Shown piece after piece: positions 58,301-61,300 of a stretch of DNA of 64,000 bases. The stretch's first letter is position 1. Each line of letters begins with the position of its first letter. The position numbers are program-made. The stretch lies in NCBI RefSeq assembly GCF_003991155.1, contig NZ_CP031293.1; one strand, given 5' to 3'. This stretch comes from Escherichia coli (GTDB taxonomy: Bacteria > Pseudomonadota > Gammaproteobacteria > Enterobacterales > Enterobacteriaceae).

Positions 58301-61300
58301 TCAATGATCTTAACCTTAAGAACACTGAGGAATAAGATGATGGATAATCAAAAGAAACAACATAAGTATTGAACTTGTTTTTACCTTCCATAATATGACT
58401 CCTATCAATATTGAACACTCTGGGGACGCAAAACTTATTAACCCCGATCGATGATTTTCATATAGGAGATATTCTTTTTTTTTTGCTCAGTAAAGGGGAT
58501 GACTTGGGACAAAAAAACGCTCTCTCTGACCATTCTTTGTGCATCCCCCTACCCTTCAGATACTCTCCTGCATCCCCCCGCGGAGAGCATGAAAAATATT
58601 GTGACTCTGTACTCTCCCATCAACTGCGAATATCATCATACTCCCGTGTTTTATCAAATTCGTGTTTCGCAAATGGGCATAGTGGGATAATTTTTCGTTT
58701 TTCCCGACGCATTTTTTCCACGACTTTCGCAACCAGCTGTTTACCAATCCCTTGCCCTTTCAGGCTTTCATCGACATCGGTATGTTCGATAATCGCTAAA
58801 TTCTCTCCGGTCGGCACAAAGACAATTTCAGCGATTTGCTTGCCCTGTTCGTCATTAATGTAAAATTTATTGTGGCCTTCGCGTATTTCCATTTTACCCT
58901 CGCTTATTTATGACGGTATTTCAGCGCGCCGCTCGGGCACGTATCAATCACTTTAACCACAGTGGCAACGTCGACTTCATCCGGCATGATCCACGGCTTT
59001 CGTTTGAGATTAAATAACTTGCCGTTGCCACGTACGCAATTGCCAGAATGCTGACATATCGCAGTATTGAAATAGACATCGATCTTTTCGCCGGTATAAC
59101 AGCGATAACCCCCGTCCAGTAGCGCCTGATCCATGACCTTCCCTCTCTCATCAGTATGGTTTTCACTATAAGCATAGCCCTGGAATCTTCATACAGCACT
59201 GGCAGTTTCCGTTGCCAGACTCTCTTCCCCTATATAGCCAATCATTCTTACTCCCTTTGAATTACCCGCCTCATCAGAGATAATGCTTAAGAAATTTGTC
59301 ACACAAGGAAGCTGATGAGACATTCATTGCCCTACCGCATATTACGCAAACGTCCGATGAAATTGAGTACCACAGTGATCTTAATGGTCAGCGCGGTACT
59401 GTTCTCGGTGCTATTGGTGGTGCATCTGATTTACTTCTCGCAAATCAGTGATATGACGCGAGACGGGCTAGCTAACAAGGCTCTGGCAGTAGCGCGTACC
59501 CTCGCCGACTCGCCGGAAATCCGGCAGGGCTTGCAGAAAAAACCGCAGGAGAGCGGCATCCAGGCCATCGCGGAAGCCGTGCGCAAACGCAACGATCTGC
59601 TATTTATTGTCGTTACCGATATGCAAAGTCTTCGCTACTCGCATCCTGAAGCCCAGCGTATTGGTCAGCCATTTAAAGGTGATGACATCCTTAAAGCGCT
59701 GAATGGCGAAGAAAATGTCGCTATCAATCGCGGTTTTCTGGCGCAGGCTTTACGCGTATTTACCCCCATCTACGATGAAAATCATAAACAAATTGGCGTG
59801 GTGGCGATCGGCCTTGAGTTAAGTCGCGTGACCCAACAGATCAATGACAGTCGCTGGAGCATTATCTGGTCGGTATTATTTGGCATGCTGGTCGGACTGA
59901 TTGGCACCTGCATTCTGGTTAAAGTACTGAAAAAAATCCTTTTCGGCCTGGAACCCTACGAAATCTCCACGCTGTTTGAGCAACGCCAGGCTATGTTGCA
60001 GTCCATCAAAGAAGGCGTCGTTGCCGTGGACGATCGCGGCGAGGTCACGCTGATCAACGATGCCGCACAAGAATTGCTGAATTACCGTAAGTCGCAGGAC
60101 GATGAGAAACTGTCGACGCTAAGCCACTCATGGTCACAGGTGGTAGATGTCTCGGAAGTGTTACGCGACGGTACGCCGCGCCGCGACGAAGAGATTACGA
60201 TTAAAGACCGGCTATTACTGATCAATACCGTTCCGGTGCGCAGTAATGGCGTTATCATCGGTGCCATTTCAACCTTCAGGGACAAAACTGAAGTTCGTAA
60301 ACTGATGCAGCGACTCGACGGTCTGGTCAACTATGCTGATGCACTTCGTGAACGATCCCACGAATTTATGAATAAATTGCATGTGATTCTCGGATTATTG
60401 CATCTGAAGAGTTATAAGCAGTTGGAAGATTACATTCTCAAAACAGCCAATAACTATCAGGAAGAGATTGGCTCTCTGCTGGGTAAGATCAAATCTCCGG
60501 TTATCGCTGGTTTTTTAATCAGCAAGATTAACCGCGCGACCGATTTAGGCCATACGCTGATTTTAAACAGTGAAAGCCTGCTGCCAGACAGCGGCAGTGA
60601 GGACCAGGTCGCGACGCTGATTACCACATTGGGAAATCTGATAGAAAACGCGCTGGAGGCATTAGGACCGGAACCCGGTGGCGAAATTAGCGTAACATTG
60701 CACTACCGTCACGGCTGGCTGCACTGTGAAGTTAACGATGATGGACCGGGGATCGCACCCGACAAAATCGATCACATTTTTGACAAAGGTGTCTCGACAA
60801 AAGGAAGCGAGCGAGGCGTCGGTTTAGCACTTGTCAAACAACAGGTAGAAAATCTCGGCGGCAGCATCGCCGTGGAATCGGAACCCGGGATTTTCACACA
60901 ATTTTTTGTCCAGATACCCTGGGACGGGGAGAGGTCGAACAGATGATCAATGTATTAATTATCGATGACGACGCAATGGTCGCGGAGCTGAATCGCCGAT
61001 ACGTGGCACAAATCCCGGGCTTTCAATGCTGTGGAACGGCTTCGACGCTGGAGAAAGCCAAAGAGATTATTTTCAACAGCGACACGCCTATCGACCTGAT
61101 ATTGCTAGATATCTATATGCAAAAAGAGAACGGGCTCGATTTACTGCCTGTCCTGCATAACGCGCGTTGCAAAAGTGATGTGATTGTCATCTCTTCCGCT
61201 GCCGATGCAGCAACCATTAAAGATTCGCTGCATTACGGTGTTGTGGATTACCTGATCAAACCCTTCCAGGCTTCCCGCTTTGAAGAGGCGCTCACCGGCT

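Follow-up and report, generated by a model that had tools for sequence, protein, structure and literature searches.

The T10 tract and duplicated C-rich motif upstream of ghoS in Escherichia coli: a length-variable homopolymer next to a conserved predicted hairpin

Analysis of the spacer between yjdJ and ghoS in a 64-kb stretch of Escherichia coli DNA (64,000 nucleotides, referred to below as the window) indicated that its run of ten T residues is probably an ordinary slippage-prone homopolymer forming a linker between conserved elements, and that the duplication of a C-rich motif in the same spacer is probably not a functional repeat. In the mechanism that we propose, the run, which reads as A residues on the ghoS strand, would begin 4 nt past the end of a K-12 transcript at the foot of a predicted hairpin (HP3) and would end directly before a block complementary to the ghoS Shine-Dalgarno (SD) region. 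Single-base slippage would have drifted the tract to lengths of 8 to 12 across E. coli lineages, no promoter or RNA fold would depend detectably on the exact number of A residues, and two point mutations within the variable loop of a second predicted hairpin (HP2) would have created the first motif copy in the lineage of the window. We infer that tract length would be close to functionally neutral. A homopolymer and a repeated motif beside a toxin-antitoxin operon would in this case be accounted for by ordinary length variation through slippage, by a conserved hairpin at which transcripts end, and by chance, and the finding itself matters little.

The yjdI-yjdJ-ghoS-ghoT cluster lies on the minus strand of the window, with the ghoS ATG at 58391, as shown by ORF calls and by the RefSeq annotation of strain 2016C-3878, in which the locus is 100% identical. 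The cluster is flanked on the plus strand by a lysyl-tRNA synthetase gene on one side and by dcuS on the other. The yjdJ-ghoS spacer of 228 bp (58392-58619) holds both the homopolymer and the repeated motif. In other studies, yjdK was listed among FNR-activated genes (PMC2634741), and the tagB/tagC (espC) island was found to insert at this locus, where duplications of yjdJ border it (PMC6592367, PMC5538559). An island bordered by yjdJ duplications was also present in L025.

Table 1. Features of the ghoS region of the window, with position, strand and the basis of each assignment
Feature	Position	Strand	Basis and remarks
ghoT	57894-58067	-	ORFs; downstream of ghoS
ghoS, type V antitoxin endoribonuclease	58095..58391	-	ORFs and RefSeq (locus 100% identical)
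ghoS Shine-Dalgarno region AUAGGAGUCAUAUU	58392..58405	-	Sequence and fold; partner of the anti-SD-like block
Invariant block AAUAUCUCCUAU	58462..58473	-	Escherichia comparison; immediately 3' of the tract; sequence complement of the ghoS SD region
A10 homopolymer (T10 on the plus strand)	58475..58484	-	Sequence; length-polymorphic, A8 to A12 in E. coli
Hairpin HP3, basal stem GGGGAUG/CAUCCCC, tail UUUACU	58489..58553	-	Fold, conservation and K-12 Term-seq 3' end
C-rich, G-poor stretch with both TGCATCCCCC copies	58520..58579	+	28 C and 5 G in 60 nt
Hairpin HP2 (AUGCUCUCC / GGAGAGUAU; CUCUCC/GGAGAG)	58560..58590	-	Predicted structure and loop variants
Predicted sigma-70-like promoter Pb, TTGATG-17-AATATT	58595..58623	-	PWM score 9.2; -35 element overlaps the yjdJ stop codon
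yjdJ, GNAT acetyltransferase	58620..58892	-	ORFs and RefSeq; same strand, upstream of ghoS
Predicted sigma-70-like promoter Pa, TTGATA-17-GATATT	58629..58657	-	9/12 consensus, best PWM score (11.0); inside the yjdJ 3' end

The original prediction had placed a T10 run upstream of ghoS, and the run was found there, reading as A10 on the ghoS strand, with the ATG 84-93 nt further downstream. No other homopolymer of the window is as long (five runs reach a length of 8), but the T10 run is no excess over chance: the T9 pattern gave two overlapping matches, both belonging to the single T10 run, against a mean of 2.04 in dinucleotide shuffles, half of which equalled or exceeded the observed count. 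Two other readings of the run were rejected. As part of a coding sequence it would fall in a 31-codon ORF (58438-58533) whose frame shifts with the natural differences in tract length, and a plus-strand terminator with T10 as its U-tract was ruled out, there being no G+C hairpin upstream.

The length of the tract was surveyed by short-query blastn searches, in which the invariant flanks joined to A(n) served as queries against 5,426 complete E. coli genomes, 5,329 of which carried the full locus. The counts are those of the ≥99% band, and each takes in up to about 7 partial matches. A tract of eight residues was found in 3,613 genomes (~68%), including K-12, BL21 and O157:H7, and one of ten residues in 1,502 genomes (~28%), including ST131, Nissle 1917, ATCC 25922 and EAEC 042. 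A9 was found in 150 genomes (~3%), mainly of the APEC O1 / S88 / UM146 / O1:K1:H7 group, which we take to be the ST95 complex. A count of 23, partial matches included, was obtained for A11 (~0.3%), which occurred in NC101 and its derivatives and in about a dozen other listed strains, among them NGF1, K-15KW01 and O169:H41. A12 was found in at least one genome. About 70 genomes fell outside the A8 to A12 counts, owing to flank SNPs or other tract forms. Some of the lengths taken from long-read assemblies may be miscalls, and the tract is itself a likely place for homopolymer miscalls in assemblies.

These lengths were mostly structured by clade and inherited within clades. Tract length (8, 9 or 10) offers an easy marker of lineage. 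The division between A8 in K-12, BL21 and O157:H7 and A10 in ST131, Nissle 1917 and EAEC 042 presumably corresponds to that between phylogroups A/E and B2/D. When ten representative E. coli spacers were aligned, A10, A9 and A8 were all present. Of the genomes with the downstream haplotype of the window, 85 carried A10 and 12 carried A9, and most of these 12 came from porcine O139:H1 / ETEC clusters. Eight metagenome contigs, a number too small for a distribution, had A8 (two), A9 (two) or A10 (four), and one of those with A9 was of ST131-like haplotype. A G4 variant that was tried as a marker of ST131 occurred in only about 150 genomes and was not a clean clone marker.

The comparison beyond E. 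coli was confined to the genus, in that a GhoS-based scan of species-representative genomes returned four other Escherichia lineages and one contaminant contig. At the same position these other lineages had A8, A9, A10 or the interrupted form AAAGGAAAAA. An A-rich tract of 8-10 nt was retained in all five Escherichia lineages compared, the interrupted AAAGGAAAAA preserving the total length, and this retention hints at some constraint on an A-rich spacer. The expectation that a homopolymer of this length undergoes slippage was thus borne out, with lengths from A8 to A12 across the 5,329 full-locus genomes and variation in other Escherichia species, and the comparison among E. coli genomes by which the original prediction proposed to check it ruled out an invariant tract.

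A change over a short time was seen in isolates from a single Swedish patient. Isolate 4/0, from a urinary tract infection, had A9, and isolates 4/1-1 and 4/4, from faeces, had A10. These clonal isolates shared 22.1 kb around the tract without a SNP; the sole other indel lay at the junction of the tRNA-Phe island, and seven other long homopolymers, including an A10 and a G10, were unchanged. The difference between A9 and A10 looks like genuine one-base slippage, a single assembly error being possible. The variation at the level of clades and the difference in one clonal pair together point to slippage on evolutionary and occasionally short timescales. A length that is mutable and yet mostly inherited is typical of a homopolymer of 8-10 nt in a repair-proficient species, unlike a contingency locus.

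The conserved element on the 5' side of the A run is HP3, for which energies of -23.6 to -25.4 kcal/mol were predicted. Its basal stem, consisting of four G-C pairs plus A-U, U-A and G-C pairs, was invariant in 13 haplotypes or species, and one apical pair covaried between U-A and G-C, with a single-change intermediate also present. Term-seq of K-12 grown in LB to OD 2.0 and in M63 had mapped an RNA 3' end to NC_000913.3 position 4352488 (+), which was classed as 'upstream ORF -96 ghoS' (Adams et al. 2021, PMC7815308). Coordinate mapping puts this position on the final T of CCCCTTTACT, 4 nt short of the A8 tract of K-12 and at the equivalent of position 58489 of the window. HP3 resembles the 'orphan' 3' ends that Term-seq detected upstream of E. 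coli ORFs (PMC7815308) in its G+C-rich stem, its U-containing tail and a mapped end lying 6 nt after the stem and 96 nt upstream of ghoS.

HP3 differs from the intrinsic terminators of the same Term-seq study (PMC7815308) in its poor U tail (UUUACU), its long and irregular stem-loop being a further difference, and either termination or trimming is possible at this site. The tail that follows the stem, UUUACUGA, contains four U residues in eight, below the threshold of at least five in eight, and a consensus scan of positions 58000-59000 reported no intrinsic terminator. Thus, of the marks of an intrinsic terminator, a stable G+C-rich hairpin and a mapped 3' end (in K-12) were found and a U-run was not, which suggests that the 3' end may arise either from weak intrinsic termination or from trimming back to the hairpin. 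Since no second 3' end is given for yjdJ by Adams et al. 2021 (PMC7815308), the end at 4352488 is probably that of the yjdIJ transcripts. HP3 is probably a terminator of yjdIJ, an attenuator in the ghoS leader, or both. A search of Rfam 15 with the region gave chance-level matches only, far under the gathering score. Pairing of the A-tract with a U7 run (inverted repeat I4) was considered as an anti-terminator and rejected, because RNA polymerase reaches the tract only beyond the 3' end and the tract is unpaired in the predicted ensemble.

The best candidates for promoters of ghoST were predicted upstream of the hairpins, at the end of yjdJ. The hexamers of Pb were largely conserved across Escherichia (with a -10 element of GATACT in one lineage, L013), and its spacer was variable in sequence and constant in length. 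The -10 element of Pb is GATATT in most strains and AATATT in the window, and transcription from it is predicted to start around 58588-58590, at the base of the HP2 5' arm. A further hairpin, HP1, is G-U rich and overlaps a predicted promoter; it is probably not real. The filter applied by Adams et al. 2021 keeps 3' ends of this class only where a transcription start lies 21-200 nt upstream (PMC7815308), which implies that some transcripts run from near the end of yjdJ to HP3, in agreement with Pa and Pb, the sole good sigma-70-like matches on this strand. The promoters that drive ghoST would be those at the yjdJ stop codon. A transcription start for ghoS had no entry in the SMRT-Cappable-seq, Kim 2012 or Mendoza-Vargas 2009 tables, and an unconventional ghoS promoter may include the tract or lie downstream of it. 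Transcriptional control of ghoST is poorly described, and the spacer appears to hold unannotated transcript architecture upstream of these genes, made up of promoters at the yjdJ stop, a 3'-end hairpin and a predicted anti-SD block.

The position of the A run between the 3' end at HP3 and the SD-complementary block suggests that it is an unstructured linker joining two conserved elements. In leaders folded with n = 6-13 the tract was predicted to be unpaired (~0.9), and both the minimum free energy (MFE) and the accessibility of the SD were constant over the same range of n in the predicted leader fold. The sequence between the AAUAUCUCCUAU block and the SD was variable, with insertions of 4 nt and 53 nt in other species. 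Pairing between AAUAUCUCCUAU and the SD appeared in the MFE structure of four of the six haplotypes, with an energy no better than that of shuffles, and was missing from the MFE structures of K-12 and of one other species.

These observations bear on the alternative that the single-stranded A run is a landing site for the ribosome (standby), S1 or Hfq beside a helix that hides the SD, and that it would tune the translation of GhoS. The predicted lack of pairing in the tract, its direct contact with the invariant SD-complementary block and the restriction of insertions to the interval between the two complementary blocks are all consistent with such a site, as are the predicted promoters and the Adams 2021 filter (PMC7815308), which imply transcripts starting upstream of the hairpins. 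The SD-sequestering fold, however, does not exceed shuffles in stability and is missing from the MFE structure in two cases, K-12 and another species; the two blocks do not vary and hence offer no covariation; read-through transcripts containing the tract are hypothetical; and tract length is predicted to be without effect. We consider this alternative unlikely.

A ribosome standby site in the mRNA of a toxin-antitoxin system is found in the tisB leader. The ghoS leader shares with standby sites of the tisB type a single-stranded stretch upstream of a structure that can sequester the ribosome binding site in the leader of a toxin-antitoxin operon, but differs from them in that the arrangement is predicted only and the helix is thermodynamically unremarkable.

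A broader version of the same idea treats the whole yjdJ-ghoS spacer as a dedicated leader, in which an RNA of roughly 100-135 nt from a promoter at the yjdJ stop would end at HP3 as an attenuator or small RNA, the A run in the read-through transcript would be a standby or protein-binding site beside the SD-masking helix, and the tract length of each lineage would set the levels of GhoS and GhoT. We regard this version as unlikely. More generally, the tract may exert a modest tuning on ghoST, as a standby site, as an UP-like element or through an influence on read-through. If tract length does tune read-through or translation, the lineages would form a natural allelic series of GhoS/GhoT dosage, with commensal and extra-intestinal pathogenic lineages at different lengths.

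A role for the tract at the level of DNA was considered as well, namely that the A-tract would act as an UP element contacted by the alpha subunits of RNA polymerase, or as a DNA bend, for a weak ghoS promoter 40-60 bp downstream. Every Escherichia lineage in the comparison keeps an A-rich tract at this position, and induction of ghoST requires (p)ppGpp (PMC11783221), a need typical of weak AT-rich promoters. With the weak candidate ATGAGA-18-TAAGTT as core promoter, the tract would span about -59 to -50; the hexamers of this candidate also occur in K-12, and it was among the top PWM matches only for the A9 strain MS20653. This candidate core promoter is, however, very poor (score 6), and the shift of 2 bp in the edge of the tract between the major lineages would misphase an UP element, which leaves such a role improbable.

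Less probable still is that the tract forms a contingency locus, in which it would be part of the spacer between the -35 and -10 elements of a ghoST promoter and frequent, reversible slippage would switch expression of the toxin-antitoxin pair. Homopolymeric contingency loci are known from slipped-strand phase variation of promoters, for example the poly-G/C tracts of porA and opc in Neisseria and the poly-C tract of the fim genes in Bordetella. The ghoS tract shares with them a mononucleotide run of about 10 nt upstream of a gene and differences in length between isolates that are due to slippage. The polymorphism from 8 to 12 residues and the clonal patient pair one A apart, without a SNP in 22 kb and with seven other homopolymers identical, fit this explanation, and in the A10 state only, a weak pair of hexamers, TTTACT-17-TATCTC, can be drawn across the tract.

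This pair scored 6.1 and was the best PWM match across the tract, against 9-11 for the sites upstream, and the consensus scan found no credible sigma-70 promoter spanning or following the tract. TATCTC lacks the final T of a -10 element, TTTACT is itself the HP3 tail, and in the majority A8 state the spacer would be only 15 nt. In contrast to the known loci, the ghoS tract does not lie between or upstream of demonstrable hexamers, it is mostly fixed within clades, and it is an A/T run of 8-12 in a mismatch-repair-proficient species, with an expression switch that is hypothetical. The suggestion that the tract serves as a regulatory switch was accordingly not upheld, as no credible promoter pair spans or follows it and its length is largely inherited.

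The second element of the original prediction, two copies of a C-rich motif about 30 bp apart, was confirmed as to sequence: TGCATCCCCC occurs exactly twice, at 58540-58549 and at 58569-58578, 29 nt from start to start. The copy at 58540-58549, the second on the ghoS strand, is the 5' arm of the invariant stem of HP3. The first copy, at 58569-58578, falls within HP2, in the loop and the upper part of the stem; this is the most variable part of the spacer, with loop variants of GGGGGG (in the window), GGGGTG, GGTGTG, GGAGTG, GATGTG and others. Its exact window form was found in 168 of 5,338 genomes (3%), and two positions differed in 3,694. The rarity of the first copy and the variability of the loop suggest that the exact duplication is a lineage-specific accident and not a conserved repeat.

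Chance repeats of this kind were common in simulation. Local direct repeats of 10-mers at spacings of 10-40 numbered six in the window, against 1.8 expected from random Markov-1 windows, 85% of which contained at least one. That a transcription factor recognises the two TGCATCCCCC copies as a direct repeat is hardly credible: an exact 10-mer does recur 29 bp apart, and only 2 of 100 shuffles had two copies of the TGCATCCCCC word anywhere in the window, but the copies are not both conserved (most genomes have GGTGTG, GGAGTG or GATGTG at the first), some local 10-mer repeat is to be expected in most random windows, and both copies are explained as parts of hairpins. The proposal of a regulatory binding site thus found no support for either copy, the first being rare and variable and the second a hairpin arm.

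On the plus strand, both copies lie within a C-rich, G-poor stretch. In K-12, a region of Rho-dependent termination of an RNA antisense to ghoST was reported at 4352446 (-), with a Rho score of 10.97 and p = 3.5e-50 (PMC7815308). Coordinate mapping placed this position at about 58531 of the window, inside the C-rich stretch. The locus shares with rut sites and Rho termination of antisense RNA a C-rich, G-poor plus strand and a region that is bicyclomycin-sensitive in K-12, but differs from rut sites in that its C-richness is the complement of the G-rich arms of the sense-strand hairpins, and loading of Rho is putative. It is plausible that the C-richness reflects this bicyclomycin-sensitive, Rho-dependent antisense termination region.

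The spacer between yjdJ and ghoS and the yjdJ gene itself are hot spots of structural change (comparison loci, designated by L numbers, are in their own coordinates). In strain KFu022 (L010, 1609-2361), an IS1 has inserted after approximately the first 108 bp of the spacer, and ghoST has been lost; B2 strains carry an island of approximately 11 kb encoding the tagB/tagC (espC-type) autotransporters, which is flanked by copies of yjdJ and corresponds to L025 791-11416 in strain 4/0, a Swedish UTI isolate. This island contains several long homopolymers, including A10, G10 and A9. 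Escherichia sp. MOD1-EC7003 (L012, ~1382-1434) has a 53-nt insertion in the ghoS-proximal part of the spacer, and this insertion has a hairpin of its own, GUUGCAUGUGCUGCAAC.

Features of the yjdJ-ghoS region in the window
Feature	Position	Strand	Remarks
Sigma-70-like promoters (two)	58595-58623, 58629-58657	minus	predicted; one at and one just before the yjdJ stop codon
Strongly C-rich, G-poor stretch	58520-58579	plus	28 C, 5 G
G5 run	58545-58549	minus	within 5' arm of hairpin
Invariant block AAUAUCUCCUAU	58462-58473	minus	directly 3' of A-run
FNR/CRP-type-like site	58447-58461	minus	K-12 form ATGAGAATCATCAAT
Upstream ORF	58438-58461	minus	seven codons, AUG AAA AUC AUC GAU CGG GGU UAA
ghoS Shine-Dalgarno region	58392-58405	minus	complementary to AAUAUCUCCUAU block

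The two sigma-70-like elements were the sole good promoter candidates predicted on the ghoS strand. The filtering used by Adams 2021 implies that a start has been mapped within the 200 nt preceding the 3' end at the hairpin. On the opposite strand, the C-rich stretch overlaps in position with the published K-12 region of Rho-dependent termination for the RNA antisense to ghoST (4352446, minus strand).

The G run of the hairpin is also polymorphic in length (G4/G5); approximately 150 genomes, some of them ST131, have the G4 form, which also occurs independently in a further Escherichia lineage. The invariant block and the ghoS Shine-Dalgarno region could form a helix masking the ribosome-binding site, the sequence between them being variable and tolerant of insertions; the predicted stability of this helix was not above that of shuffled sequences.

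The seven-codon upstream ORF, which has no Shine-Dalgarno sequence, is retained in most E. coli and is disrupted in strain SCPM-O-B-8794. As judged from its sequence, the K-12 form ATGAGAATCATCAAT is similar to sites of the FNR/CRP type (TGA-N6-TCA); activation by FNR is listed for yjdK (PMC2634741). The version of this sequence in the window differs from that of K-12 by two SNPs, one of which disrupts the TCA core.

A 306-nt contig deposited under the name Bacillus sanguinis (L016) matches a portion of the E. coli ghoS gene with 100% identity and almost certainly represents contamination of the Bacillus sanguinis assembly.
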